DNA from: Betaproteobacteria bacterium | GTDB lineage: Bacteria > Pseudomonadota > Gammaproteobacteria > Burkholderiales > Usitatibacteraceae | Assembly: GCA_016720855.1 (NCBI GenBank) | Contig: JADKJU010000005.1 | Location: 249,636-313,635 of the forward strand | Direction: 5' to 3' | DNA: 64,000 nt | Shown here: piece by piece, positions 49,583 to 62,674 of the stretch | Position numbering within the stretch: position 1 is the first letter of the stretch | How the letters are laid out: each line of letters starts with the position of its first letter | Made by a program: the position numbers and the translations under genes | Notes under the pieces: model-generated | Told to the model about the DNA's origin: nothing | Databases searched by the model: none | What the model saw: the letters and a program-made list of their open reading frames with translations, nothing else

Positions 49583-50155
49583 ATGCCCGCTTCGCCGACC
49601 GAACAGTCCGGCGCCCCGTCCCCGGGGGACGCCCTCGGCACCTGCTACCGCTGCATGGCGCGAATGCTCGATCGCCTGGAGCGGCTCGCCGCCGAGTTCG
49701 ATTCCTCCTTGCACGAAGCGCCGCCCGCGGATGCTGCGGACCGCGCCGGCGCGCTGGTTGCCGACATCGACGAGGCGCTCGCCGTGCACATGGGGGACGA
49801 GGAAAAGGACATCTTCCCGGCCCTGCTCGCGGCGGCCGATTCCCCCGCCCGCCGGGCCCAGGCCTTCGAACTGGTCTCCTCGCTGCTGGTCGAGCACCAT
49901 GAACTGGCGGAGCTGTGGCACGCGCTTCGCATCCCGCTCCTCGCGCTGGGCAGCGGGGTCGCCGTCAGCCTGCCCGGCGGCACGGCCGCGGACTTCCTCC
50001 AATTCGCGCGGCGCCACCTGGAACGCGGGGAACTCGAGCTCGCCGACCTGATGCGCGTAATCGGCCCGCAAAGGTCACGCGAGATCGGCGTCGCCATGGC
50101 GCAGCGCCACGACGATACGCACCTGCGAATCAAGGACTGCCCGCTGAAGCCCTGA
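49583..50155 (+). CDS. hemerythrin (HHE cation-binding) domain protein
   Basis: 190 aa. HMGDEEKDIFPAL and EHHELAE motifs. GGAGGG Shine-Dalgarno upstream. Confidence 0.75.
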   Translation: MPASPTEQSGAPSPGDALGTCYRCMARMLDRLERLAAEFDSSLHEAPPADAADRAGALVADIDEALAVHMGDEEKDIFPALLAAADSPARRAQAFELVSSLLVEHHELAELWHALRIPLLALGSGVAVSLPGGTAADFLQFARRHLERGELELADLMRVIGPQRSREIGVAMAQRHDDTHLRIKDCPLKP

Positions 50156-51319: not shown

Positions 51320-51333
51320 TTGAACCCGTTCAA
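51320..51333. promoter_or_regulatory. FNR/Dnr-type box (perfect palindrome) in the ctaA / oxidase divergent region
   Basis: TTGAACCCGTTCAA = TTGA-N6-TCAA. TAGCAT at 51356-51361 has class-II spacing (box centre to predicted start site about 41.5 nt). The first downstream start codon with a Shine-Dalgarno is 51417. Confidence 0.6.
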
Positions 51334-51416: not shown

Positions 51417-51602
51417 ATGAGCCAGGTACCCGCCACGCCCGGTGCGGCCGACGATGCCGACGTGCACGACGAACCGATTCCGATGATGCAGCAACTCATC
51501 GACAACCCGTTCCTGCTCCTGTTCCTCGGGGTCGCGATGCCCACCGTCCTCTACATCGTCTGGGGCGTGATGGAAATCGTGGGCATCCCGCTCACCAAGT
51601 GA
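51417..51602 (+). CDS. small single-TM membrane protein heading the oxidase operon
   Basis: 61 aa with AGGAGA Shine-Dalgarno and one hydrophobic helix (FLLLFLGVAMPTVLYIVWGVMEIV). It may be analogous to small accessory subunits of B-type oxidases. Confidence 0.5.
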   Translation: MSQVPATPGAADDADVHDEPIPMMQQLIDNPFLLLFLGVAMPTVLYIVWGVMEIVGIPLTK

Positions 51603-51630
51603 CCGCCGCGACCACCCCGGAGAAGACCCC

Positions 51631-52185
51631 ATGAGCGCCATCCAATCCCCGCCCCAGAGAGTCTGGTGGAAGCAACCCCTCGACCGAGTCGAAGGCACCT
51701 GGATCGTCATCGCCTTCGTGTGGTGCATGGTCATGTTCTTCATGATGCCGTACTGGCACGTCTACGGTAAGCAGAACCTCTCCAACGAGGCCTACCGCTC
51801 CACGCCCGAGGCGTTCCTCGCCAAGGCGCAGGCGATGGTGGACAAGCACACCGTGCGCACCGTCACGGAGCAGAACATTCCCGTCGTGCACCCCGTGCCG
51901 GGCGCCGACGTCTATCTCGTGGCGCGCCTGTGGCAGTGGTGGCCGGTGCTGGAACTCGAGGAAGGCCAGACCTACCGCCTGCACATCATGTCCACCGACT
52001 GGCTGCACGGCTTCTCCCTGCAGCCCGAGAACATCAACATCCAGGTGCATCCCGGCTACGAGCACGTCGTGACCATGACGCCCACCAAGGAAGGCACCTA
52101 CTCGATCATCTGCAACGAGTACTGCGGCATCAACCACCACACGATGGCGAGCAAGCTCTACGTCGTCAAACCGAAGAAGCAGTAG
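51631..52185 (+). CDS. heme-copper oxidase subunit II, single-TM, CuA cupredoxin domain (B-family/ba3-like)
   Basis: 184 aa. The CuA ligands are intact: DWLHGF ... CNEYCGINHHTM (C-x3-C-x3-H-x2-M). Collinear with ba3 subunit II (..DVIHGF....ICNQYCGLGHQNM). Confidence 0.85.
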   Translation: MSAIQSPPQRVWWKQPLDRVEGTWIVIAFVWCMVMFFMMPYWHVYGKQNLSNEAYRSTPEAFLAKAQAMVDKHTVRTVTEQNIPVVHPVPGADVYLVARLWQWWPVLELEEGQTYRLHIMSTDWLHGFSLQPENINIQVHPGYEHVVTMTPTKEGTYSIICNEYCGINHHTMASKLYVVKPKKQ

Positions 52186-52195
52186 GGAGATCGCC

Positions 52196-53926
52196 ATGGC
52201 CGTCAATCGCAATTTCCGCACCTGCCCGTCCACCGGACTCGTCTACCACGAGCCCGCCGAGGCGCTCATCCGCTGGAACGCCGTCGCCGGCGTCGTCTCG
52301 CTCCTCGTGGGCGGCGTCCTGGCCCTGCTGGTCACGCTCACGCGCTGGCCGGCGGTGAGGCTCCTGCCGCCCGACTGGTTCTACCTCGTGCTCACCGCGC
52401 ATGGCCTGGACATGCTGGTGTTCTGGATCATCTTCTTCGAGATCGCGGTGCTCTACTTCGCCGCCTCGACGCTGCTCAAGTGCCGCCTGGCGACGCCGAA
52501 GGTGGCCTGGGTGGCCTTCTGGCTGATGATCGTGGGCGCGATCACGAACAACGTCGCCGTGTTCAAGGGCGATTCCAGCGTCATGTTCACGTCCTACGTG
52601 CCGATGGGGGCTCACCCGCTCTTCTACCTCGGGCTCATCCTCTTCGCCGTGGGCGCGCTCGTCGCCTGCTTCGTGTTCTTCGGCACGCTCGTCGTGGGCA
52701 AGTCGGAGAAGACCTACAACGGCTCGATCCCGCTGGTGACCTTCGGCGCCGTGACCGCGGCGATCATCGCGGTATTCACCATCGCCGCGGGCGCCATCAT
52801 CCTGATACCGACCTTCATGTGGTCCGTGGGGCTGGTCTCGCACATCGACTCCCTCATGTACCGCACGGTCTGGTGGGCGTTCGGGCACTCCTCGCAGCAG
52901 ATCAACGTCGCCGCGCACGTGTCCGTGTGGTACGCGATCGCCGCCATCGTCTTCGGCGCCAAGCCGATGAGCGAGAAGGTGAGCCGCACGGCCTTCGTGC
53001 TCTACATCCTGTTCCTGCAGCTCGCGAGCGCGCACCACCTGCTCGCCGACCCGGGCCTCACCTCCAACTGGAAGATCTTCAACACCAGCTACGCGATGTA
53101 CCTCGCCGTGCTCGCCTCCATGGTGCACGGCCTCACGGTGCCGGGCGCGATCGAGGTGGCGCAGCGCGAGAAGGGCTTCAACAAGGGCCTTTTCGAGTGG
53201 CTGAGGAAGGCCCCGTGGGGCAATCCCAGCTTCTCGGGCATGTTCATGTCGCTCGTGGGCTTCGGCTTCCTGGGCGGGATCTCGGGCGTCATGATGGGCA
53301 CCGAGCAGTTGAACCTCATCATCCACAACACGATCTACGTGCCGGGCCACTTCCACGCGACGGTGGTCGTGGGAACCACGCTCGCCTTCATGGCGCTCAC
53401 GTACTTCCTGATCCCGACCCTTTTCCGGCGCGAACTGATGTTCCCGGCGATGGCCAAGTGGCAGACCTACGTCTATGGCCTGGGCATGATGGGATTCTCG
53501 GTCTTCATGATGGGCGCCGGAACGCTCGGCGTGCCGCGCCGCCATTGGGACATGGCCTTTTCCGGCGCGGTCCTGCCGCACGAGTTCCCCGGCACGGCCT
53601 ATCTCATGATGGGCCTCATGGCGGTCTCGGGCATCCTCGCGACCGTGGGCGGCGCGATGTTCCTCATCAACACGGTGGGGTCGGTGTTCCTCGGCAAGAA
53701 GATCCAGACGCCGGGCTTCGCCCGCGTGTCGGTGAAGGATGGCATGGCCCCGGCGCCGACGCCGGAATTCGCGGCGCCCGCAGTCCCCGCGGTGCACGGC
53801 TCCATCGGCATCGGCGGTTTCGTGGCGCCGGGCACCTTCGTGCTGGCGATGGTGTTCCTCACGTCTTTCATCCTCTACTACTTCGTGAACTGGAAGTACC
53901 TGTCGACCGTCTGGCCGCTGAAGTAG
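52196..53926 (+). CDS. heme-copper oxidase superfamily subunit I, B-family-like but lacking the cross-linked Tyr (NOR-like active site)
   Basis: 576 aa. The His ligands are LTAHG (helix II), WWAFGH (VI), SAHH (VII) and GHFHATV (X). Aligned by eye with Thermus ba3 RTLFWWTGHPIVY, it reads RTVWWAFGHSSQQ, so Gln occupies the Tyr237 position. Confidence 0.85.
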   Translation: MAVNRNFRTCPSTGLVYHEPAEALIRWNAVAGVVSLLVGGVLALLVTLTRWPAVRLLPPDWFYLVLTAHGLDMLVFWIIFFEIAVLYFAASTLLKCRLATPKVAWVAFWLMIVGAITNNVAVFKGDSSVMFTSYVPMGAHPLFYLGLILFAVGALVACFVFFGTLVVGKSEKTYNGSIPLVTFGAVTAAIIAVFTIAAGAIILIPTFMWSVGLVSHIDSLMYRTVWWAFGHSSQQINVAAHVSVWYAIAAIVFGAKPMSEKVSRTAFVLYILFLQLASAHHLLADPGLTSNWKIFNTSYAMYLAVLASMVHGLTVPGAIEVAQREKGFNKGLFEWLRKAPWGNPSFSGMFMSLVGFGFLGGISGVMMGTEQLNLIIHNTIYVPGHFHATVVVGTTLAFMALTYFLIPTLFRRELMFPAMAKWQTYVYGLGMMGFSVFMMGAGTLGVPRRHWDMAFSGAVLPHEFPGTAYLMMGLMAVSGILATVGGAMFLINTVGSVFLGKKIQTPGFARVSVKDGMAPAPTPEFAAPAVPAVHGSIGIGGFVAPGTFVLAMVFLTSFILYYFVNWKYLSTVWPLK

Positions 53927-53949: not shown

Positions 53950-54819
53950 ATGAACAGCCGCGTGAAACTCTTCTTCGACCTGTTCAAGCTCCGCATCGGC
54001 TTCGCGATCGGGCTCACCGCCCTGGCGGGGGCCCTCGCGGTCCCCGGCCGGCAGGCAGGCGCTTGGCAGGTGGCGCTCCTGGTCGCGTGCGTCATCGCCG
54101 CTTCGGCGGCGGCAGGCGCGTTCAACCAGTACGTCGAGCGCGACCTCGATGCGCGCATGGGACGCACGCGCGGCCGCGCCTTCGTCACCGGCCAGCTCAA
54201 GCACGGGCCGTTCTGGCTCGGCGTGATCGGCCTCATGCTGGCGCTTGCCGTGTGCGCTGCGGCGGTCGCCGTGAATGCCGTCGCCGCCCTGTTCGTGTTC
54301 CTGGGCGCCTTCTTCTACGGCGTCGTCTATACGGTCATCCTCAAGCGGCGCACGTGGATGAACATCGTGATCGGGGGCCTCGCCGGCAGCTTCGCGGTGC
54401 TCGCCGGGGCGACCGCCGTCACCCCGGGCGAGATCGGCCCCGTGGCCGCCTCGCTCGCCTGGGTGCTGTTCCTCTGGACGCCGCCGCACTTCTGGAGCCT
54501 CGCCATCGCCTTCCAGGACGACTACCGCGCCGCGGGCGTGCCGATGCTTCCGGTGGTCGTGGGCGAGGCCCGCGCGGCCCGGGTCGTGCTCGGCGGCACC
54601 GTCGTGCTCGTCGCCTCATCCTTCCTGCCGCTCCTCTTCGGCCTGGGCACCCTCTATGCGGCCGGCGCGATCGCCGGCGGACTCCTGTTCCTGCGCGGGG
54701 CCGCGCGCCTTGCGGCCGATCCTTCCCGCACCACGGCGATGGGGAGCTTCCATGCCTCCCTCGCCCAGCTCTCGCTCCTGCTCATCGGCGTGATCGCGGA
54801 CGCGGCCTGGCGGGCCTAG
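53950..54819 (+). CDS. ctaB: protoheme IX farnesyltransferase (heme O synthase)
   Basis: 289 aa UbiA-family protein. NQYVERDLDARMGRTRGR and WTPPHFWSLA motifs. Confidence 0.9.
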   Translation: MNSRVKLFFDLFKLRIGFAIGLTALAGALAVPGRQAGAWQVALLVACVIAASAAAGAFNQYVERDLDARMGRTRGRAFVTGQLKHGPFWLGVIGLMLALAVCAAAVAVNAVAALFVFLGAFFYGVVYTVILKRRTWMNIVIGGLAGSFAVLAGATAVTPGEIGPVAASLAWVLFLWTPPHFWSLAIAFQDDYRAAGVPMLPVVVGEARAARVVLGGTVVLVASSFLPLLFGLGTLYAAGAIAGGLLFLRGAARLAADPSRTTAMGSFHASLAQLSLLLIGVIADAAWRA

Positions 54820-54824
54820 CCCGC

Positions 54825-55658
54825 ATGGGTACCGGTTGCCGAACGCGCTGGCTGCAGACGGCGGCCGCGTTCGCCTTCGGGGTCGTCCTCGGGACCGCGC
54901 AGGCGCGTGCGGAATCCGGGGGCGCCGCCCTGGATGCGAACGCGACCCTCGAACGCAGCCAGCGCGCCCTCGGCAACCCGGTGGGCGACTACGCGTTCAA
55001 GGCGGCCGACGGCAAGCCGGTGCGGCTTTCGCAGTTCCGCGGCCGCCCGCTCCTCGTCAACTTCGTGTACACGGCCTGCTCGCAGGTCTGCCCGACCACC
55101 ACGCGATTTCTCGCGGGTGCGGTCGCCGAAGCCGATCGCATGCTCGGCCCCGGCCGCTATGCCGTGGCCACGATCGGCTTCAACTATCCCTATGACACGC
55201 CGGAGGCGATGCGCGCCTTCGCCCGCGCGCAGGGCATCGATCGCCGCGACTGGGTCTTCCTGAGCCCCGAGGCCGGGGTGGTGGAAAGCATCACCCGCGA
55301 CCTCGGGTTCAGCTTTGCCGCTTCCTCCGGCGGCTTCGACCATCTCACGCAAGTCACGCTCATCGACGAGGAAGGCCGCGTGGCCGCGCAGGTGTATGGC
55401 GAGAGCTTCGAGGTGCCGATGCTCGTGGGCCCGCTCAAGGCCCTGCTCACCAATGCTCCCCTGCCGCAATTCTCCGTCGCCAATCTCCTCGAGCGCGTTC
55501 GATTGCTGTGCACCGTGTATGATCCTCGAAGCGGGCGCTATCGCCTGGACTACAGCATCGTGCTCGAGATTCTCATCGGCGCGTCCATCGTGCTCGCCAC
55601 GTTCTTCTTCCTGTTCCGCGAATGGCAACGGCACCGGCGCCGGTTGCGCGCGGGCTGA
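54825..55658 (+). CDS. SCO1/SenC copper chaperone with C-terminal membrane-anchor extension
   Basis: 277 aa. Thioredoxin-fold CxxxC is FVYTACSQVCP. There is an extra ~70-aa tail ending in a TM helix (ILIGASIVLATFFFLF). Confidence 0.85.
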   Translation: MGTGCRTRWLQTAAAFAFGVVLGTAQARAESGGAALDANATLERSQRALGNPVGDYAFKAADGKPVRLSQFRGRPLLVNFVYTACSQVCPTTTRFLAGAVAEADRMLGPGRYAVATIGFNYPYDTPEAMRAFARAQGIDRRDWVFLSPEAGVVESITRDLGFSFAASSGGFDHLTQVTLIDEEGRVAAQVYGESFEVPMLVGPLKALLTNAPLPQFSVANLLERVRLLCTVYDPRSGRYRLDYSIVLEILIGASIVLATFFFLFREWQRHRRRLRAG

Positions 55659-55662
55659 TGCC

Positions 55663-57600
55663 ATGCTCGCCCTCCTGCAAAGGCTCCTGCAGCGGCTCTT
55701 CCTCGGCGCGGAAAGGATCGCCAACGCCATCTTCGGGGAACGCCTCAATCCGCTCTACCACCTCGGGGCGATCAGCTACTACCTGTTCTGGGTCGTGCTC
55801 GCGAGCGGGCTCTACCTCTACGCCTTCTTCGACACGAGCGTGACCGGCGCCTACGCTTCCGTCGAGCGCCTCACCCACGACCAGCGATGGATCGGCGGGA
55901 TCCTCAGGAGCCTGCACCGCTACGCCTCCGACGGCATGGTGCTCACCATGGTGCTGCACCTGACGCGCCACTTCGCCTTCGACCGGCACCGCGGCTTCCG
56001 CTGGTTCTCGTGGGTGAGCGGCGTGATCCTGCTCTGGCTCGTGTACGCCTCGGGCATCAACGGCTACATGCTGCCCTGGGACCAGCTCGCGCAGTTCACC
56101 GTGACCGCCACCGCCGAGTGGTTCGACGCGCTGCCGGTGTTCAACGGCCTGCTCATGCGCAATTTCCTGAGCGCCGACAGCGTGAACGACCGGTTCTTCT
56201 CCCTGCTCTCGTTCCTGCACATCGGCCTGCCGCTGGGCGTGCTGGCGCTCCTGTGGATCCACACGCACCGCGTGCCGCAGGCGAAGACGCTGCCGCCCAA
56301 CCCGCTCATGGTCGCGCTCGGCGCGGCGATGATCGCGCTCTCCGTCGTGAAGCCGGCGCTGAGCCAGCTGCCCGCCGACCTCGCGACGACGGCGTCCTCG
56401 ATCGAGTTCGACTGGTTCTACCTGCCTACCTACGCCCTCATCTACCGCTGGACGCCCGGCGCCGTCTGGGCGCTCGTCGTCCCCCTCACGATTCTCGCCG
56501 TGCTGGCACCGTGGCTGCCGCCGAAGTTCGGGCGGCGCGCCATTCGCGCGTTCCACGTGCTGGCCCATCCCGACAATCGCATCGTCCCGGTGAAGGAGGA
56601 CGAGTCGATCCTCGACGCCTGCCTGCGCGAAGGGCTTCCCATGCCCTTCGATTGCCGCAACGGCGGCTGCGGCGTTTGCAAGTGCACGGTGCTGCACGGG
56701 GAGGTGGAATTGGGCGCCTACCAGGAAAGTGCCCTGTCCACCGCGGACCGCGAGGCCGGCCGCGTGCTCTCCTGCGTGGCGAAGCCCCTTTCCGATGTCG
56801 AGATCGAATACGAACCCACGGACGAATCCGCGCGTCCCGTCACCCTGCATGACGCGCGAGTGGTCTCCATGGACCTGCTCGCGCCGGACGTCATGCGCGT
56901 TCGCCTCGAGGTCGAAGGGGGAGCGAGGATCCCCTTCTACGCCGGCCAGTACATCAACATCCTGCTGGACGACGGCCAGAAGCGCGCCTTCTCGTTCGCC
57001 ACCCCTCCGCACGAGCCCGGCCCGATCGAGCTGCACATCCGCCGCATCGAAGGCGGGCGATTCACCACGCACGTCTTCACCGCCATGAAGGTCGGCGATC
57101 ATATTCGCTTCGAGGGACCGGTGGGCTCCTTCTTCCTGCGCGAGGACGGGGACAAGCCCGTCATCTTCGTGGCCGGGGCCACCGGATTCGCACCCGTGAA
57201 GAGCATGGTGGAGCACGCGCTGCATGCCGGCGTGACCCGGCCCATGGTGCTCTACTGGGGCACGCGCAACCTCGCCGACATGTACCTTCGCGAACTTCCC
57301 GAGCGCTGGGCGAAGGAGCATGCGAACTTCCGCTTCGTTCCCGTGCTCTCCGATGCGGTGCCCGGCGACGGCTGGGAGGGCAGGAAGGGCCTTGTCCACG
57401 AGGCGATCCTCGCCGACTATCCCGACCTCGGGGGGCATCGCATCTACGCCTGCGGCTCGGTGAAGATGGTCGAGGCCGCGCAACCTGCGTTCGCCAAGCA
57501 GGGGCTCTCGCCCGACGACTGCTTTTCCGATGCGTTCAAGCTCGCACCGCGCATCCATTCGAAGGACGCCGATCTCGTGCGCCTGGGGGGGCGCCCATGA
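55663..57600 (+). CDS. fusion protein: di-heme cytochrome b (bc1/b6-type N-domain) + plant-type [2Fe-2S] ferredoxin + FAD/NAD(P)H ferredoxin-reductase domain
   Basis: 645 aa. Two His pairs are each spaced 14 residues apart (SLHRYASDGMVLTMVLH and FLHIGLPLGVLALLWIH). The 2Fe-2S motif is CRNGGCGVCKC...SCVA. FNR motifs are RAFSFA, FVAGATGFAP and YACGS. Confidence 0.85.
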   Translation: MLALLQRLLQRLFLGAERIANAIFGERLNPLYHLGAISYYLFWVVLASGLYLYAFFDTSVTGAYASVERLTHDQRWIGGILRSLHRYASDGMVLTMVLHLTRHFAFDRHRGFRWFSWVSGVILLWLVYASGINGYMLPWDQLAQFTVTATAEWFDALPVFNGLLMRNFLSADSVNDRFFSLLSFLHIGLPLGVLALLWIHTHRVPQAKTLPPNPLMVALGAAMIALSVVKPALSQLPADLATTASSIEFDWFYLPTYALIYRWTPGAVWALVVPLTILAVLAPWLPPKFGRRAIRAFHVLAHPDNRIVPVKEDESILDACLREGLPMPFDCRNGGCGVCKCTVLHGEVELGAYQESALSTADREAGRVLSCVAKPLSDVEIEYEPTDESARPVTLHDARVVSMDLLAPDVMRVRLEVEGGARIPFYAGQYINILLDDGQKRAFSFATPPHEPGPIELHIRRIEGGRFTTHVFTAMKVGDHIRFEGPVGSFFLREDGDKPVIFVAGATGFAPVKSMVEHALHAGVTRPMVLYWGTRNLADMYLRELPERWAKEHANFRFVPVLSDAVPGDGWEGRKGLVHEAILADYPDLGGHRIYACGSVKMVEAAQPAFAKQGLSPDDCFSDAFKLAPRIHSKDADLVRLGGRP

Positions 57601-58097
57601 ACCGCCCGCTGCGCTACCTCCTGCAGGGCCTCCTCTATGGCGCCTTCGCGGCCACCCTGGGCTATTTCTCGACCTCGCCGGCGTTCGAGCCGCTTCCCCC
57701 GGGCCACGCGCTCATCCGCCTGTCGCTCAACCACGCCGGACAACGCAAGGTGGCCTGCCGCACGCGCACGCCCGAGGAACTCGCGAAACTGGCGCCCAAC
57801 ATGCGGGCAGCGGAAGACTGCTCGCGCGAGCGCGCGCCCGTGCTGGTGAAAGTGGAGCTCAATGGCAAGTCCGTGGCCGACATCGTCGCGGCGCCGACGG
57901 GCCTGTCGCGCGACGGCGCGTCGGTGGCCTACCGGCGCATACCCGTCGTCGCGGGCACGTACCTCGTGAAGGTGAGCATCGCGGACAACGCGGCGGGACT
58001 TTTCGACCGCGTGCGTGAGGAGGAAGTGCGTCTCGAGCCGGGCCGCGTGCTGGTGATCGACTTCGAACCCGGCAAGGGCGGGATCGTGTTGCGCTAG
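57597..58097 (+). CDS. 166-aa membrane-anchored hypothetical protein
   Basis: ATGA overlap with the preceding gene and 2 nt from the next. One N-terminal TM (YLLQGLLYGAFAATLGYF). Strong GC3 coding signal. No motif recognised. Confidence 0.6.
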   Translation: MNRPLRYLLQGLLYGAFAATLGYFSTSPAFEPLPPGHALIRLSLNHAGQRKVACRTRTPEELAKLAPNMRAAEDCSRERAPVLVKVELNGKSVADIVAAPTGLSRDGASVAYRRIPVVAGTYLVKVSIADNAAGLFDRVREEEVRLEPGRVLVIDFEPGKGGIVLR

Positions 58098-58099
58098 CC

Positions 58100-59677
58100 A
58101 TGAAAGCCGCCTCCCTGTCGCTTCCCCGCCCCGGCCGTGCCGCGCTCGTCGTGGAGCGGGTGGACGCGCTCTTCGACCGCGCCTTCGGCCAGCGCCTGAA
58201 CCCGTGGCGGCATCTCGGCGCGCTCGGCTTCCTGTTCTTCTGGATCTGCTGCGCCTCGGGCATCTGGATCTACGTCGGCTACGACACCAGCACCCTCGGC
58301 GCGCACGAGAGCCTGGCCGCGATGGACCGCAACGAGTGGCCGCTTGGCGCGCTGGCGCGCGCGCTGCACCGCTACAGCGCCGACGCCCTCGTGGTGGTGA
58401 CCGCGCTTCACCTCGCGCGGGAACTGGCGCGCCGGCACTACGCGGCGTTCCGCCTCTACGCGTGGCTCACCGGGCTCGTCGTCCTGGTGCTGATGTTCGC
58501 CGCCGGCATCGGCGGCTACTGGCTGCCCTGGGACCAGCTCGCGCAGTGGAGCCTCACGGCCACCACGGAATGGTTCGACGCGCTGCCGGTCTTCGACGGC
58601 GCCCTGTCGCGCAACGTCATCGCCGGCAGCCAGGTGAACGACCGCTTCTTCTCCCTCCTCATCTTCCTGCACATCGGCCTGCCGCTCGCCATGCTCGGCG
58701 CGATGTGGGCGCACGTGCAGCGCGTGAGCCCCGCACGCACCAATCCGCCGGGCGCGCTGGGGTGGGGATCCCTCGCCATGCTGGCGGCGCTTTGCCTCGC
58801 CAAGCCCGTCTCGCTGATGCCTGCGGCCGACCTGGCTTTCCTGCCCGCCAGGATCCCCGTCGACTGGTTCTATCTCTTCCCGCACCCGCTCATGGCCTGG
58901 CTCGGACCCGACGGGCTGTGGTGGGCGACGGCCGCCTTTCTCGCGGGCCTCGCAACCCTGCCGTGGGCCACGCGCGTCGCGCGCGCACCGGCGGCCCGCG
59001 TGAGCCTGGCCAACTGCAACGGCTGTGCGCGCTGCTTCGCGGACTGCCCGTACGACGCGGTGGTGATGGTGGCGCGCACCGACGCGCGTCCGCATCCGCG
59101 TCAGGCACAGGTGAACCCTGACCTGTGCGCGGGCTGCGGCATCTGCACCGGCGCCTGCCCATCGTCCACGCCGTTCCGCCGGGACGAGGCGCTGGTCACC
59201 GGCATCGACATGCCCTCCATGGCCATCGGCGAAATGCGCGACCGGCTGGAGGCGCGCACGGCTGCCCTCGTGGGCCGCCCGCGCATCGTGGTCTTCGGTT
59301 GCCGCTGGGGAGCGGATAGCGAAAGCCTCGCAGGGCCCTCCACCGCCGCGATCGAATTCGTCTGCGGCGCGATGCTGCCCCCCTCGTTCGTGGAATACGC
59401 GCTGCGCGCAGGGGCCGACGGCGTGCTCGTCGCCAGTTGCCGCGAAGGCGACTGCGAGTTCCGCACCGGCGACCAGCTCATCGCTGCGCGGCTGGGCGCC
59501 GAGCGCAAGCCTGCATTGCGATCGAGCGTGGCGCGTGAGCGCGTCCGGCTGGTCCCCGCCGGGCGCACCGATACCGGATTCCTGCGCACGCAGCTCGATG
59601 CCTTCCGCGCGGACCTCGAACGACTCGAATCCCGCCATGCCTCACCCCCCAAACGCCAGGAGAAGCACCATGGCTAG
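58100..59677 (+). CDS. fusion protein: di-heme cytochrome b + 2x[4Fe-4S] ferredoxin + MvhD/FlpD-like (hydrogenase iron-sulfur subunit) domain
   Basis: 525 aa. The cytochrome b part is paralogous to 55663-56500 (ALHRYSADALVVVTALH and FLHIGLPLAMLGAMWAH). Cluster motifs are CNGCARCFADCP and CAGCGICTGACP. The MvhD-like segment is IVVFGCRWGA...FVCGAMLPPSFVEYALRAGADGVLVASCREGDCEF. Confidence 0.8.
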   Translation: MKAASLSLPRPGRAALVVERVDALFDRAFGQRLNPWRHLGALGFLFFWICCASGIWIYVGYDTSTLGAHESLAAMDRNEWPLGALARALHRYSADALVVVTALHLARELARRHYAAFRLYAWLTGLVVLVLMFAAGIGGYWLPWDQLAQWSLTATTEWFDALPVFDGALSRNVIAGSQVNDRFFSLLIFLHIGLPLAMLGAMWAHVQRVSPARTNPPGALGWGSLAMLAALCLAKPVSLMPAADLAFLPARIPVDWFYLFPHPLMAWLGPDGLWWATAAFLAGLATLPWATRVARAPAARVSLANCNGCARCFADCPYDAVVMVARTDARPHPRQAQVNPDLCAGCGICTGACPSSTPFRRDEALVTGIDMPSMAIGEMRDRLEARTAALVGRPRIVVFGCRWGADSESLAGPSTAAIEFVCGAMLPPSFVEYALRAGADGVLVASCREGDCEFRTGDQLIAARLGAERKPALRSSVARERVRLVPAGRTDTGFLRTQLDAFRADLERLESRHASPPKRQEKHHG

Positions 59678-61097
59678 CCTTCACTCCGCCCATGCCCACT
59701 CCCTCGCTTCGGCTGCCGACCAATCGGCGAGCGGCACCACATTCGGGATCACCGTGGGGCGCGACGCCTCCGCGCGCCTCGCGACCGGCTGGCTCGCGCT
59801 CGGCATCGCCGCGCTCGTCGGATCCGGCGTGTTCTCGCTCCTGCTCGTGCTCGCGCGCACGCCGGGGCTCAAGGAAATCTTCCCCGTCGCCGATTTCTTC
59901 CAGGTGGCGCTCGTCGCGCACGTGGACCTGTCGGTCCTCGTCTGGTTCCTTGCCTTCGCGGGCGTGCTGTGGAGCCTTGCGTGCGATGCCCGCGGCATCG
60001 CCGTGGGCTGGGTCGCCCTGGCGCTGTGCGCCGCCGGGACGCTGGCGCTTTGCGTGGCCCCGCTCGCGGGGAACGCGGTGCCGGTGCTGGCCAACTACAT
60101 CCCCGTCATCGACAACGCCGCGTTCCTGGGCGGTCTTGCCGCCATCGGCGCCGGCGTCGCGCTTGCGGCGACGCGCACGTTCTGGGCGGCTCGCGCCTTT
60201 GCCCCGACCCTCGACGGCGAGTCGGCGCTACGCTGGGGAATCCTCGGATCGGCCGTCGCGACGGCCATTGCCCTGGCCGCCTTCGGCTGGTCGTGGATGG
60301 AGCTCTCGCCGCACCTCGAGCGCAAGGCCTACTACGAGCTGCTCTTCTGGGGCGGCGGCCACGTGCTGCAGTTCACGTGGACCCTGCTCATGCTCGCCGG
60401 CTGGCTGTGGCTTGCGAGCGCTCTGGGGCTGCGCCCGGCACTTTCGCCTCGCGTGACGCTTCTCGTCTTCACGATCGCGCTGGCCTGCGTGTTCGTCACC
60501 CCCGTCATCTACATCGCCCACCCGGTCGCCTCGGTGGAGCACCACAAGCTGCAAACCTGGCTCATGCGTTTCGGCGGCGGGCTCGCGATCCCGCCGGTTC
60601 TCCTCGCGCTCCTGTGGGCGATGCGCAGCCTGCCATCCCTCGACGCGCAGAAGCGCCCGATCTTCGGGGCGCTCGCGGCCTCCATCGGGCTCTTCGCGGC
60701 CGGCGGCCTCATCGGCTTTGCCATCAGCGGGGCCAACGTGAAGATCCCGGCGCACTATCACGGCTGCATCGTCGGGGTGACGCTCGCGTTCATGGGACTG
60801 GCCTACCACCTCCTGCCGCAGCTCGGTTTCGCCGCGCCGCGCTCGCGTCTGGCCGCGTGGCAGCCCTGGCTCTACGGCGGAGGGCAGCTCGCGCACATCG
60901 TGGGCCTGGTGTGGTCGGGCGGATACGGCGTTGAACGCAAGGTGGCGGGCGCCGCGCAGGTGCTGCGCACGCCGCAGGAGGTGGCGGGCATGGGGCTCAT
61001 GGGCCTGGGCGGCCTGGTAGCGATCCTGGGCGGCCTCGCGTTCGTGATCGTCGTGATCGGCGCCCTGCGTCGTCCCGCCGGCGCCGAGACCGCCTGA
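59670..61097 (+). CDS. highly divergent heme-copper-oxidase subunit-I homologue (12 TM) retaining all six canonical His ligands
   Basis: I prefer ATG 59670 (AGGAGA Shine-Dalgarno). 475 aa. His84 (LVAHVD), His231 (LLFWGGGH), His291/292 (VEHH) and His362/364 (AHYHG) sit at nearly the same positions as ba3 H72, H233, H282/283 and H384/386. There is no Tyr at His+4 (HVLQF). Confidence 0.65.
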   Translation: MASLHSAHAHSLASAADQSASGTTFGITVGRDASARLATGWLALGIAALVGSGVFSLLLVLARTPGLKEIFPVADFFQVALVAHVDLSVLVWFLAFAGVLWSLACDARGIAVGWVALALCAAGTLALCVAPLAGNAVPVLANYIPVIDNAAFLGGLAAIGAGVALAATRTFWAARAFAPTLDGESALRWGILGSAVATAIALAAFGWSWMELSPHLERKAYYELLFWGGGHVLQFTWTLLMLAGWLWLASALGLRPALSPRVTLLVFTIALACVFVTPVIYIAHPVASVEHHKLQTWLMRFGGGLAIPPVLLALLWAMRSLPSLDAQKRPIFGALAASIGLFAAGGLIGFAISGANVKIPAHYHGCIVGVTLAFMGLAYHLLPQLGFAAPRSRLAAWQPWLYGGGQLAHIVGLVWSGGYGVERKVAGAAQVLRTPQEVAGMGLMGLGGLVAILGGLAFVIVVIGALRRPAGAETA

Positions 61098-61108
61098 GCG
61101 CACCGGTC

Positions 61109-61909
61109 ATGACGCGCGAAGAGCGCATGCTTTCCGCGACCGCGGCCGCATGCGCGGCGCTGGTCTTCATCATCGTCGCTGCCAGCGCCTGGCTGAGGCT
61201 CGTGGCCGTGCCCTGTCCGCCGGCAGGGTGCGAGGGATTCACGCTCACCGATGCCGTGCGCCTCGCGCACCGCGTGGCCGCCATGGGCGTGACGGTCCTG
61301 GCCCTCGTCATCATCGCGCTGGCGTGGAAGGCGCCCCGGCGCTGGGGCCTGCGCATCGCCGCGGCCATCCTCTTCGGCCTCGTGGCCGCGCTCGCCGTCA
61401 TCGGCCGCCGGTCGGCGGGAGCCGCCCCGCCCGAGGTGATGCTCGCCAACCTGCTGGGGGGCCTCACGCTTCTTGCGGTCTCCGTGGCCCTGGCCGTCGC
61501 CCCGCGCCAGCCGCGGGGACGGATCGCACTCCCCTTCGCTGCCGCAGCGTTGCTGTTCGCCGTGTCCACAGGGACGGGGGGCCTGCTGGTCATGGCACCG
61601 CCGGCCGACACCGCGTCGCTGGGCCTCGCCCATCGCGCCCTTTCCTGGGCCACCCTGGCGGGCTGGGGGCTGCTGGCGTTCGCAAGCGCACCCCCGGCCG
61701 GTGTACGTGCGGCAACGCGCCTCGCCGCCGCGCTCATGGCGCTTCAGGTCCTGCTCGCGCTGTCGTTGCCCGCCGGGCCACTGGCGCGTTGGCTTCACAA
61801 CCTGCTCACGTCCGCGGCGCTTCTCCCCGTCATTGCTGCAGCGCTGTCCTGCCGGGCCCCCTTGCGCCCCGATCCCGCGCACCCCGAACGCCTGCCTGCC
61901 GGATCCTGA
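61109..61909 (+). CDS. polytopic membrane protein, CtaA/COX15-like (putative)
   Basis: 266 aa with about 8 hydrophobic segments. A Cys pair lies in the first loop (CPPAGC), followed by AHRVAAMG. Later helices carry His (LAHRAL, WLHNLL). The family call is by pattern only. Confidence 0.4.
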   Translation: MTREERMLSATAAACAALVFIIVAASAWLRLVAVPCPPAGCEGFTLTDAVRLAHRVAAMGVTVLALVIIALAWKAPRRWGLRIAAAILFGLVAALAVIGRRSAGAAPPEVMLANLLGGLTLLAVSVALAVAPRQPRGRIALPFAAAALLFAVSTGTGGLLVMAPPADTASLGLAHRALSWATLAGWGLLAFASAPPAGVRAATRLAAALMALQVLLALSLPAGPLARWLHNLLTSAALLPVIAAALSCRAPLRPDPAHPERLPAGS

Positions 61910-61960: not shown

Positions 61961-62674
61961 ATGCAGCCCGGAGAACCGCGCTCACGCGGGCCCGACATCC
62001 CGGTCGAGCAATTCCTCGTCAACCTGCCGCTCTTCAGCGATCTCACGCCCGAGGAGATCCAGCGCGTCGCGGGCGGCACTCGCCGCATCTACGCGACCAA
62101 GGGCGAGACGCTTTTCACGCGAGGCGACCGTTGCGAGGGCTTCCACGTCGTCCTCTACGGGCAGGTGAAGCTCTTCGTCACTTCACCCCAGGGCTCCGAG
62201 AAGGTGATCGAGATCATGGGCCCGGGCATCTCGTTCGGCGAGGCGGTCCTCTTCATGGACATCCCCTACCCCGTCTCGGCGCAGGCGCTCAAGGATTCGC
62301 TCCTGCTGCACGTCTCCAAGAGCCTCGTCTCGGAGGAGATCGTGCGCGATCCCCGCTTCGCGAGGCGGCTGCTGGCCGGCATGTCGAAGAAGCTTCACCA
62401 GCTCATCCACGACGTGGAGGCCTACTCGCTTCGCTCGGGGCTGGAGCGCGTGATCGGCTACCTGCTGCGCGACGACGCCATTTCCGACGGCTCCGCGCGC
62501 TCGACGAGCGTGACGCTGCCCGCCAACAAGATGATCGTGGCCTCGCGCCTCAATCTCACGCCGGAGTACTTCTCGCGCATCCTGCACGAGCTGGCCGGCG
62601 CGGGGCTGATCGTGATGGAGGGCCGTTCGGTTTCGGTCCCCGACATCGAGCGCCTGCGTACCTACACCGGCTGA
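61961..62674 (+). CDS. Crp/Fnr-family transcriptional regulator, Dnr/NnrR type (no FNR Cys cluster)
   Basis: 237 aa with a cNMP-like beta-barrel and a C-terminal HTH carrying the E--SR recognition motif (TPEYFSRIL), which reads TTGA-N6-TCAA boxes. The N-terminus lacks the Cys-x2-Cys-x5-Cys of FNR. Confidence 0.8.
   Translation: MQPGEPRSRGPDIPVEQFLVNLPLFSDLTPEEIQRVAGGTRRIYATKGETLFTRGDRCEGFHVVLYGQVKLFVTSPQGSEKVIEIMGPGISFGEAVLFMDIPYPVSAQALKDSLLLHVSKSLVSEEIVRDPRFARRLLAGMSKKLHQLIHDVEAYSLRSGLERVIGYLLRDDAISDGSARSTSVTLPANKMIVASRLNLTPEYFSRILHELAGAGLIVMEGRSVSVPDIERLRTYTG

Follow-up and report, generated by a model that had tools for sequence, protein, structure and literature searches.

A cytochrome b–ferredoxin–MvhD fusion protein encoded in eNOR clusters of Proteobacteria

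The 64,000-nucleotide stretch analysed here (the window) comes from contig JADKJU010000005.1 of a Betaproteobacteria bacterium and contains, at positions 58100-59677 of the forward strand, a gene in which a cytochrome b membrane domain is followed by a ferredoxin domain with two [4Fe-4S] clusters and by an MvhD-type domain. Judging from sequence comparisons, this protein (hereafter the fusion) belongs to a widespread type of redox protein with four modules, here in split form, which occurs together with proteobacterial clusters of eNOR, a family of nitric-oxide reductases (PMC11214002). The fusion probably carries electrons across the membrane to eNOR; the class that suits it best is that of membrane wires made of cytochrome b and Fe-S clusters, here with a bc-type fold and dedicated to eNOR. 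The protein is widespread, no function is described for it in the searchable literature, and the mechanism set out below is one that we infer.

Domains, cofactor ligands and a fourth module

The gene, its predicted domains and the adjacent gene p166 are located as follows.

58100..59677, + strand: cytochrome b – 2x[4Fe-4S] – MvhD fusion gene (open reading frame (ORF) of 525 aa; Pfam; AlphaFold2 model)
58187..58717, + strand: cytochrome b four-helix core, residues 30-206, helices A-D (PF00033, E 7e-23; cytochrome b6 6rqf_I, E 8e-16)
58718..58975, + strand: helices E and F with the ef loop (profile comparison with b6f subunit IV; Foldseek; D255 and W256 invariant)
58994..59167, + strand: cytoplasmic 2x[4Fe-4S] ferredoxin domain, residues 299-356 (Fer4 family matches; eight invariant Cys)
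59288..59626, + strand: MvhD/FlpD-type domain, residues 397-509, presumed [2Fe-2S] binder (PF02662, E 1.1e-13; MvhD chains in the PDB; Foldseek)
57597..58097, + strand: p166, a single-pass membrane protein of 166 aa with a beta-sandwich head (AlphaFold2; neighbour and fusion evidence)

The three domains that the first-pass annotation had read from the sequence (cytochrome b, two [4Fe-4S] clusters, MvhD) are all borne out by Pfam, by invariant ligands and by solved structures. In the Pfam search the Cytochrome_B family PF00033 covers residues 30-206 with 81.9 bits against a cut-off of 27.2, the Fer4 dicluster lies at residues 299-356, and the FlpD/MvhD family PF02662 covers residues 397-509 with 51.7 bits against a cut-off of 22.3; hence the MvhD assignment, which had been named beforehand as the call on which a profile search should decide, holds. 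The cytochrome b part belongs to the cytochrome b superfamily, and the MvhD domain is a genuine member of its family.

Ligand conservation was assessed by aligning 19 homologues that have 52-81% identity. Invariant among them are all eight Cys of the two CxxCxxCxxxCP motifs (C306/309/312/316-P317 and C343/346/349/353-P354), the four bis-His haem ligands H90, H104, H191 and H205 in helices B and D, spaced as H-x13-H in the sequence of the fusion, and the four Cys C401, C422, C447 and C452 of the MvhD part. The latter align with conserved Cys of solved MvhD chains and would presumably ligate a [2Fe-2S] cluster. Among solved structures, the MvhD part matches 9sw2_D by sequence (E 1.6e-10) and, in a Foldseek comparison of the AlphaFold2 model, 5odc_D (TM 0.73) and 8rvu_F (TM 0.77) by fold, and the dicluster domain resembles the C-terminal ferredoxin domain of HdrA (5odc_A, residues 557-631). 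The N-terminal membrane part matches solved cytochrome b6 (6rqf_I, E 8e-16) and bc1 cytochrome b; the AlphaFold2 model of the fusion (pLDDT 73.8) contains six transmembrane helices, A-F, and is aligned by Foldseek to bc1 cytochrome b over approximately 285 columns.

By fold homology with bc1 and b6f, we take the N-terminus of the fusion to be cytoplasmic, H90/H191 to bind the outer (p-side) haem, and H104/H205 to bind the inner (n-side) haem. Given six helices, the C-terminus would therefore be back in the cytoplasm; the first [4Fe-4S] motif starts about 10-15 residues past helix F. The segment L-D255-W256-F of the ef loop aligns with P-E-W-Y, the quinol-oxidation motif, in a weak profile match of helices E-F to b6f subunit IV (best E 1.1e-3). 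Among the 19 homologues, D255 and W256 do not vary, nor does a large part of the cd loop (LPWDQ).

Many diverse representatives of the family are longer, 650-750 aa, and BLAST and local profile searches identify their C-terminal extension as p166. Cytochrome b, Fer4, MvhD and p166 form one chain in 59 of the best 150 diverse representatives (median length 699 aa), and another 48 have the three-domain form, many of these being fragments. Hence p166, which the first-pass annotation had overlooked, is assigned as the fourth module of the same protein, of which the window holds the split form. The hydrophobic N-terminal helix of p166 is retained in the fused forms, that is, a membrane helix lies between MvhD and p166; since the Fe-S head must be cytoplasmic, we infer that the p166 head is periplasmic. 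The AlphaFold2 model of p166 (pLDDT 88.5) consists of this membrane helix and a beta-sandwich. Pfam assigns p166 to no family, and no fold in the PDB matches it below E 1e-3. Its pair of Cys is invariant in close relatives and kept in only about half of the diverse family; conservation is stronger at several Arg, Asp and Gly positions and in an H/N-M-R motif. On these three grounds (no family, no fold match, Cys pair not universal), p166 was rejected as a substitute for a Rieske protein or a cupredoxin.

The architecture search proposed by the first-pass annotation retrieved the full three-domain arrangement in the best 120 of 3035 database matches. At least 549 confirmed matches were found in species-representative genomes of Beta-, Gamma- and Alphaproteobacteria; the isolates among the species-representative matches listed are Noviherbaspirillum sp. 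ST 5-3, Pelomicrobium sp. G1 and Piscinibacter caeni MQ-18. When 1.84 billion cluster representatives were searched exhaustively, 432 of them matched at E <= 1e-30. An identical protein (P0001) is deposited in NCBI, encoded on a 512-kb contig of a Betaproteobacteria metagenome-assembled genome. These matches, together with the invariant cofactor ligands and the base composition, which is even throughout the region, contradict an assembly chimera or a pseudogene; we found nothing in favour of a mis-assembly, gave it practically no credence and rejected it. In a search for homologues of the soluble head only, the matches mostly look like fragments of the same family, as judged by their length and short contigs. 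In databases the fusion goes under generic names ('hydrogenase iron-sulfur subunit', 'cytochrome b N-terminal domain-containing protein'), and the NCBIfam search found no curated family covering it.

The eNOR cluster and its conservation

The terminal enzyme encoded beside the fusion, which the first-pass annotation had overlooked, is identified from its subunit I as eNOR. The main genes of the cluster, in addition to p166 and the fusion, are listed below.

51631..52185, + strand: eNOR subunit II, cupredoxin with the CuA motif CNEYCGINHHTM (PF00116; motif from translation)
52196..53926, + strand: eNOR subunit I, B-family-related haem-copper oxidoreductase (PF00115, E 3e-66; alignment to Thermus thermophilus ba3)
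53950..54819, + strand: haem O synthase CtaB, UbiA family (PF01040, E 3e-46)
54825..55658, + strand: SCO1/SenC copper chaperone, C-terminally extended by a membrane helix (PF02630)
55663..57600, + strand: paralogue of the fusion, cytochrome b – [2Fe-2S] ferredoxin – FAD/NAD(P)H reductase (FNR-type), 645 aa (Pfam, NCBIfam)
59670..61097, + strand: divergent subunit-I-like haem-copper protein, 475 aa (PF00115, E 2e-16)

In the alignment of subunit I with T. thermophilus ba3, FGHSSQQ lies opposite FGHPIVY, so that the cross-link Tyr is replaced by Gln. A Gln at this site is diagnostic of eNOR (PMC8756737), and because of this replacement we assign the window enzyme to eNOR. The CuA motif of subunit II follows the pattern C-x-E-x-C-x3-H-x2-M in the translation. 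The sNOR norSY-senC cluster of ammonia oxidisers was considered and rejected, as subunit I bears the eNOR Gln signature. Nitric oxide (NO) reductase activity has been demonstrated for the eNOR of Rhodothermus marinus alone (PMC11214002). In the divergent subunit-I-like protein, the six canonical His align with those of eNOR I and a Phe occupies the position of the cross-link Tyr; no subunit II gene adjoins it.

On the + strand the order of genes is the 61-aa ORF (described below), eNOR II, eNOR I, CtaB, SCO1, the cytochrome b–ferredoxin–FNR paralogue, p166 and the fusion, followed by the subunit-I-like gene, a gene for a 266-aa membrane protein and a Crp/Fnr regulator. Intergenic gaps are 0-12 nt, or the genes overlap; in particular, the start of the subunit-I-like gene overlaps the stop of the fusion by 8 nt, which suggests translational coupling inside an operon. 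Located 5' of the eNOR cluster are CtaA, on the opposite strand, and a hemerythrin gene.

For the comparison across genomes we used 80 loci, namely the best genomic loci by similarity to the fusion; they are uninformative on eNOR clusters without it. SCO1 and p166, the latter next to the fusion, are each present in 77 of the 80 loci, eNOR I in 71, eNOR II in 64, CtaB in 62, the subunit-I-like protein in 57, the FNR-type paralogue in 52 and CtaA in 27. In the loci without eNOR genes the match is near a contig end, with little upstream sequence, and every sampled locus whose contig extends far enough has an eNOR cluster around the fusion. Hence, in the sampled loci the fusion always accompanies eNOR; the converse, that every eNOR would come with the fusion, is not implied. 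The alphaproteobacterial loci have the MvhD-type gene and p166 only, without the FNR paralogue and without the subunit-I-like gene. Among four more distant relatives, at 27-42% identity, three are encoded beside an eNOR-I-like gene and SCO1, and the contig of the fourth (L084) is too short to decide.

The recurrent extra ORF families of the 80 loci are, by look, a CtaA-like membrane protein, NirS, hemerythrin, a small membrane protein and, possibly, a DUF2249-like one. A gene resembling cytochrome cd1 nitrite reductase (NirS), as judged by translation, lies within a few kb of eNOR in 17 of the 80 loci (e.g. L023, 3817-5364). This proximity supports a denitrification setting; the first-pass annotation had placed the gene in a proteobacterial, denitrification-type background, and rightly so. 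Among the most recurrent extra families of the 80 loci we observed no Rieske protein, no c1/f or other c-type cytochrome (NirS excepted), and no Hdr, hydrogenase or ferredoxin partner. The window cluster likewise has no Rieske subunit, and neither this cluster nor the recurrent neighbours include an HdrA-type flavoprotein, Mvh, or a bifurcating or dehydrogenase partner.

The remaining features of the cluster and its edges are as follows.

49583-50155, + strand: hemerythrin (HHE) domain protein at the cluster edge (domain match)
51320..51333, + strand: TTGA-N6-TCAA box between ctaA and the eNOR genes (two occurrences in the window, 0.13 expected)
51418-51603, + strand: ORF of 61 aa (…QQLIDNPFLLLFLGVAMPTVLYIVWGV…), a single-helix membrane protein, just 5' of eNOR II
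61109-61909, + strand: polytopic membrane protein of 266 aa (faint, sub-threshold similarity to COX15/CtaA)
61961..62674, + strand: Crp/Fnr-family regulator at the cluster end (cNMP_binding and HTH_Crp_2)

The TTGA-N6-TCAA box occurs within 600 nt 5' of eNOR II in 34 of 60 loci, with a background of 0.05 per 600 nt. The palindrome sits approximately 300-400 nt 5' of eNOR II, where it is roughly ten-fold over background. From the known consensus, it may be a site of the FNR/Dnr type; the strict FNR consensus TTGAT-N4-ATCAA gave zero matches at one mismatch or fewer, and the relaxed core alone is enriched. Terminator-like sites in the window are no commoner than in shuffled sequence.

Similar to an ORF family of 14 other loci, the 61-aa ORF could encode a small subunit of eNOR. 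The 266-aa membrane protein is present in the three closest loci only. Hemerythrin genes were observed in 14 loci, as well as in L081 and L086; the encoded protein could be a sensor of NO or O2, or a repair protein for iron centres. The genes 5' of approximately 49.5 kb (a short-chain dehydrogenase, an Fe-alcohol dehydrogenase and a PEP-utilising enzyme) belong to ordinary metabolism and are unrelated to the cluster.

Paralogous stems, their heads and known systems

The first-pass annotation described the membrane domain of the fusion as a duplicate of the one at 55663, and the two domains are indeed 47% identical over 262 aa (E 4e-75). The DNA-level identity runs that it quoted as common to both genes are also real: each of the two occurs exactly twice in the window, once per paralogue, with 0 expected. 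These runs encode the invariant motifs LPWDQLAQ and FDALPV, and the cytochrome b domains of the two genes share 60% DNA identity at a GC content of third codon positions of 0.94-0.97. Therefore, the runs reflect conservation of the motifs combined with codon bias rather than a recent duplication. In a tree with cytochrome b6 as the outgroup, the cytochrome b domains of the MvhD type (n = 81) and of the FNR type (n = 50) form reciprocally monophyletic sister clades; the tree is a rough neighbour-joining one of loci selected via the MvhD type, and the order of origin of the two forms cannot be read from it. The identity of paralogues from the same genome (median 46.5%) is no higher than that between genomes. 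The sequences thus date the duplication as ancient, not recent, and recent duplication or gene conversion as the source of the DNA runs is rejected by the 60% DNA identity, the third-position GC of about 0.95, the invariant motifs and the reciprocal monophyly. Neither is the fusion functionally a 'second' copy, as it had been called: the FNR type is absent from 28 of the 80 loci, which were chosen for the MvhD type, including the alphaproteobacterial ones.

NCBIfam identifies the head of the FNR-type paralogue as BenC-like (E 4e-61). Yet another head, the third, occurs in the 827-aa protein P0473 (L086, 8001-10484), where a cytochrome b stem carries a flavodoxin–FAD–NAD(P)H head of the P450-reductase/CysJ type, non-homologous to that of the FNR type. 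The surrounding L086 cluster, otherwise similar, comprises eNOR I, CtaB, the MvhD-type fusion, p166, the subunit-I-like protein, PCuAC, CtaG, SCO1 and NnrS. Two further proteins join the stem to other parts. In P0417 (761 aa; L085, 2-2287), a six-helix cytochrome b without an Fe-S head is fused straight to the subunit-I-like protein, and in P0472 (676 aa) SCO1 is fused to the cytochrome b N-terminus. Both are single cases, and each may be a true variant or a read-through of the gene call; they hint at a physical association of the stem with the subunit-I-like protein and with SCO1. As to the window itself, the second, C-terminal hydrophobic helix of its SCO1 (…LEILIGASIVLATFFFLF…) would put both ends of the chaperone in the cytoplasm, an arrangement compatible with the SCO1–cytochrome b fusion found elsewhere.

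The fusion resembles several known systems, each in some parts only. With bc1 cytochrome b and with b6f cytochrome b6 plus subunit IV it shares the fold of helices A-F (approximately 285 columns), the four His with the H-x13-H spacing, the cd loop LPWDQ and, going by a weak profile match, an acidic-Trp motif at the place of PEWY. In contrast to bc1 and b6f, its surroundings contain no gene for a Rieske protein, c1 or f, it lacks helices G and H, L-D-W-F stands for PEWY, and a cytoplasmic Fe-S head follows helix F, at the inner face and near the inner haem. Lacking a Rieske protein and a c1/f subunit, it falls outside the definition of a bc1/b6f complex. The head (residues 297-511) matches residues 570-773 of HdrA2 from Methanosarcina, that is, a ferredoxin domain followed by MvhD (E 1.3e-22); the match to the NCBIfam family of HdrA2, NF040770, reaches 79.7 bits against a cut-off of 1100 and covers only the C-terminal ferredoxin and MvhD part. 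In archaeal Mvh-Hdr complexes this ferredoxin–MvhD pair is an electron wire. Unlike those complexes, the fusion lacks the flavoprotein core of HdrA as well as HdrBC and is not accompanied by a hydrogenase or a formate dehydrogenase, and the N-terminal CCxxC of MvhD is cut down to a single Cys. With neither the HdrA core nor a hydrogenase, it is not an Hdr/Mvh system.

A membrane stem with two haems combined with cytoplasmic Fe-S proteins, linking the quinone pool or the periplasm with a cytoplasmic redox site, is also known from NarI/NarH, HdrE/HdrD, QmoC and DsrM/DsrK. However, the stems there are NarI-type cytochromes b, not of the bc1/b6 fold, and a known catalytic subunit is present, whereas none is evident for the fusion. 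The paralogues, with their NAD(P)H-flavin domain on a six-helix stem with two haems, are built like the eukaryotic NOX, Fre and Steap, where this layout exports electrons; yet the membrane domain is not homologous, and the head of the fusion contains Fe-S clusters only, without flavin. CcoG/FixG is a membrane cupric reductase that has two [4Fe-4S] clusters and ends in a periplasmic Ig-like domain; it acts in assembly of the cbb3 oxidase and is encoded just 3' of the oxidase genes, with the physiological donor and the Ig-like domain's role unknown (PMC7558416). Its layout resembles the succession of Fer4, membrane helix and p166 beta-sandwich, but CcoG has neither haems nor an MvhD domain. The CcoG families Fer4_5, Fer4_18 and FixG_C were not reported by Pfam for either the fusion or p166, and a sequence relation to CcoG, not being detectable with Pfam, was rejected.

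The closest described case is the eNOR operon of Ferrigenium straubiae, where two genes termed 'bc1 chain C-like' have, by the description in a preprint, the same layout and types of fusion (May 2026; bioRxiv 10.64898/2026.01.22.701106). Its authors report both cytochrome b fusions as 'rather unusual' members of the operon and detected both, along with eNOR, in the proteome under Fe(II)-oxidising, denitrifying conditions. The second protein is described there as 'cytochrome b and [Fe-S]', MvhD and p166 being unrecognised. The authors propose a 'quinol:NAD+ oxidoreductase / supercomplex', with reduction of NAD+ by the FNR paralogue. In a table of a 2022 paper, one protein combines cytochrome b6 with FlpD and a DMSOR-beta-like domain. 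Beyond these two passing mentions, the searchable literature on MvhD/FlpD with cytochrome b consists, by title and abstract, of papers on methanogens, sulfate reducers and acetogens. The first-pass annotation did not recognise the architecture as a described one; this stands with respect to function and has to be amended for the architecture itself, which the preprint and the table note in passing.

Direction of electron flow and possible roles

We propose that a low-potential cytoplasmic donor would dock at the MvhD/ferredoxin head and that electrons would flow outward, from [2Fe-2S] through the two [4Fe-4S] clusters in turn to the inner haem, the outer haem and a site at the periplasmic side. 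For the sister paralogues we would expect NAD(P)H as the donor, with the flavin head as its entry point. With the Rieske-less cytochrome b as the stem and its putative PEWY-like pocket at the periplasmic side, the electrons would be delivered to the eNOR module. BenC-type and P450-reductase/CysJ-type units are one-way donors that pass electrons from NAD(P)H to haem or Fe-S acceptors, and the interchange of heads of these two types suggests that the stem is reduced from the cytoplasm. This interchange argues against an NAD+-reducing role of the FNR paralogue, and outward flow may be extended by parsimony from the paralogues to the MvhD type. Outward delivery in the service of catalysis, that is, NO reduction by eNOR and/or by the subunit-I-like protein, is the tentative reading that we prefer, at slightly less than even confidence; direct feeding of this kind fits the strict linkage, the gene overlap and the existence of several metabolic heads. 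According to the first-pass annotation, the duplicated stems with their two alternative heads could supply the same terminal enzyme or enzymes. This is plausible, and the strict linkage to eNOR and the third, non-homologous NAD(P)H head in L086 strengthen it.

Several points weigh against outward delivery to eNOR. The outward direction of the MvhD type is drawn solely by analogy with the paralogues, and no gene for a cytoplasmic donor is recurrent in the clusters of the 80 loci. An eNOR with its own CuA subunit could be served by an ordinary cytochrome c, and the authors of the preprint regard cytochrome b genes as unusual for eNOR operons (bioRxiv 10.64898/2026.01.22.701106). The PEWY-like motif and the highly conserved cd loop suggest a quinone site, and such a site would accord with quinol oxidation no less than with outward delivery; the PEWY alignment is itself weak (E 1e-3), and the AlphaFold2 model of the fusion is moderately confident (pLDDT 73.8). 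Finally, loci picked by similarity to the fusion are silent on eNOR clusters that lack it.

The fusions might instead serve maturation of the enzyme, reducing periplasmic Cu(II) or Fe(III), or keeping SCO1 and the CuA Cys reduced, for loading of the CuA and non-haem sites of eNOR; in a variant of the same explanation, electrons would go to haem A synthase, as from the yeast reductase Arh1 and ferredoxin Yah1. Assembly genes do surround the fusion (CtaB and SCO1 in the window; PCuAC, CtaG and SCO1 in L086), the paralogues of the NAD(P)H type mimic Fre and Steap, with a flavin domain and two haems across the membrane, SCO1 is fused to cytochrome b in one representative, and CcoG offers a parallel, with its two [4Fe-4S] clusters, periplasmic Ig-like C-terminus and a gene next to the oxidase (PMC7558416). 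However, the relation to CcoG does not extend to sequence: Pfam gave no match to Fer4_5, Fer4_18 or FixG_C for the fusion or p166. No more than 27 of the 80 loci contain CtaA, and about half of the diverse family lacks the p166 Cys pair. Moreover, reduction of metals needs no bc-type cytochrome b with a PEWY-like motif, and two or three large parallel systems seem too much for a small assembly flux. We consider maturation possible but rather unlikely, and slightly favour the feeding of electrons for NO reduction over it. Still lower we place a general ferredoxin- or NAD(P)H:quinone oxidoreductase that would be a chance neighbour of eNOR without any specific partnership. The quinone-site-like motif is in accord with it, but it is very improbable in view of the linkage to eNOR, which holds at identities as low as 27% and in Alpha-, Beta- and Gammaproteobacteria alike, the gene overlap, which suggests translational coupling, and the single representatives fused to the subunit-I-like protein and to SCO1.

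Vectorially opposite is a Rieske-less split of the Qo type, in which quinol would be oxidised at the periplasmic side, one electron being drawn off by the strongly oxidising eNOR/NO couple and the other passing inward over both haems and through the Fe-S clusters and MvhD to a low-potential cytoplasmic acceptor, ferredoxin or NAD+. The PEWY-like motif and the invariant cd loop speak for such a split, and in all systems known to us MvhD modules are tied to low-potential, bifurcating chemistry. It is also close to the 'quinol:NAD+ oxidoreductase / supercomplex' proposed for F. straubiae (bioRxiv 10.64898/2026.01.22.701106), and a similar proposal, generation of NAD(P)H, exists for anammox Rieske/cytochrome b complexes (PMC12954380). 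On the other hand, neither a Rieske gene nor another gene for a high-potential acceptor is among the most recurrent extras of the 80 loci, p166 has no metal-binding motif and no redox-protein fold, and the P450-reductase-type head in L086 favours oxidation of NAD(P)H, not reduction of NAD+. Most of the host taxa, besides, are ordinary heterotrophic denitrifiers with no special need of reverse electron flow. We regard the inward split as doubtful. A specific form of it, a supercomplex of the fusion, p166 and eNOR where NO would pull one electron of the quinol and the other would enter a ferredoxin-level Fe-S chain, seems to us a shade more doubtful still; if true, denitrifiers would gain low-potential reductant and membrane potential straight from NO respiration.

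Much of the NO reduction and N2O production in the environment is attributed to enzymes of the eNOR family. The fusion would be a conserved, dedicated redox partner of eNOR, in which a Rieske-less bc-type cytochrome b is wired to an HdrA/MvhD-like cytoplasmic Fe-S chain. It belongs to a family with interchangeable heads (Fe-S/MvhD, BenC-type and P450-reductase-type), and p166 adds a newly recognised, presumably periplasmic module to this eNOR-linked family. For bioenergetics this would mean a new use of the cytochrome b fold, and for research on denitrification it provides concrete genes in cultivated hosts.

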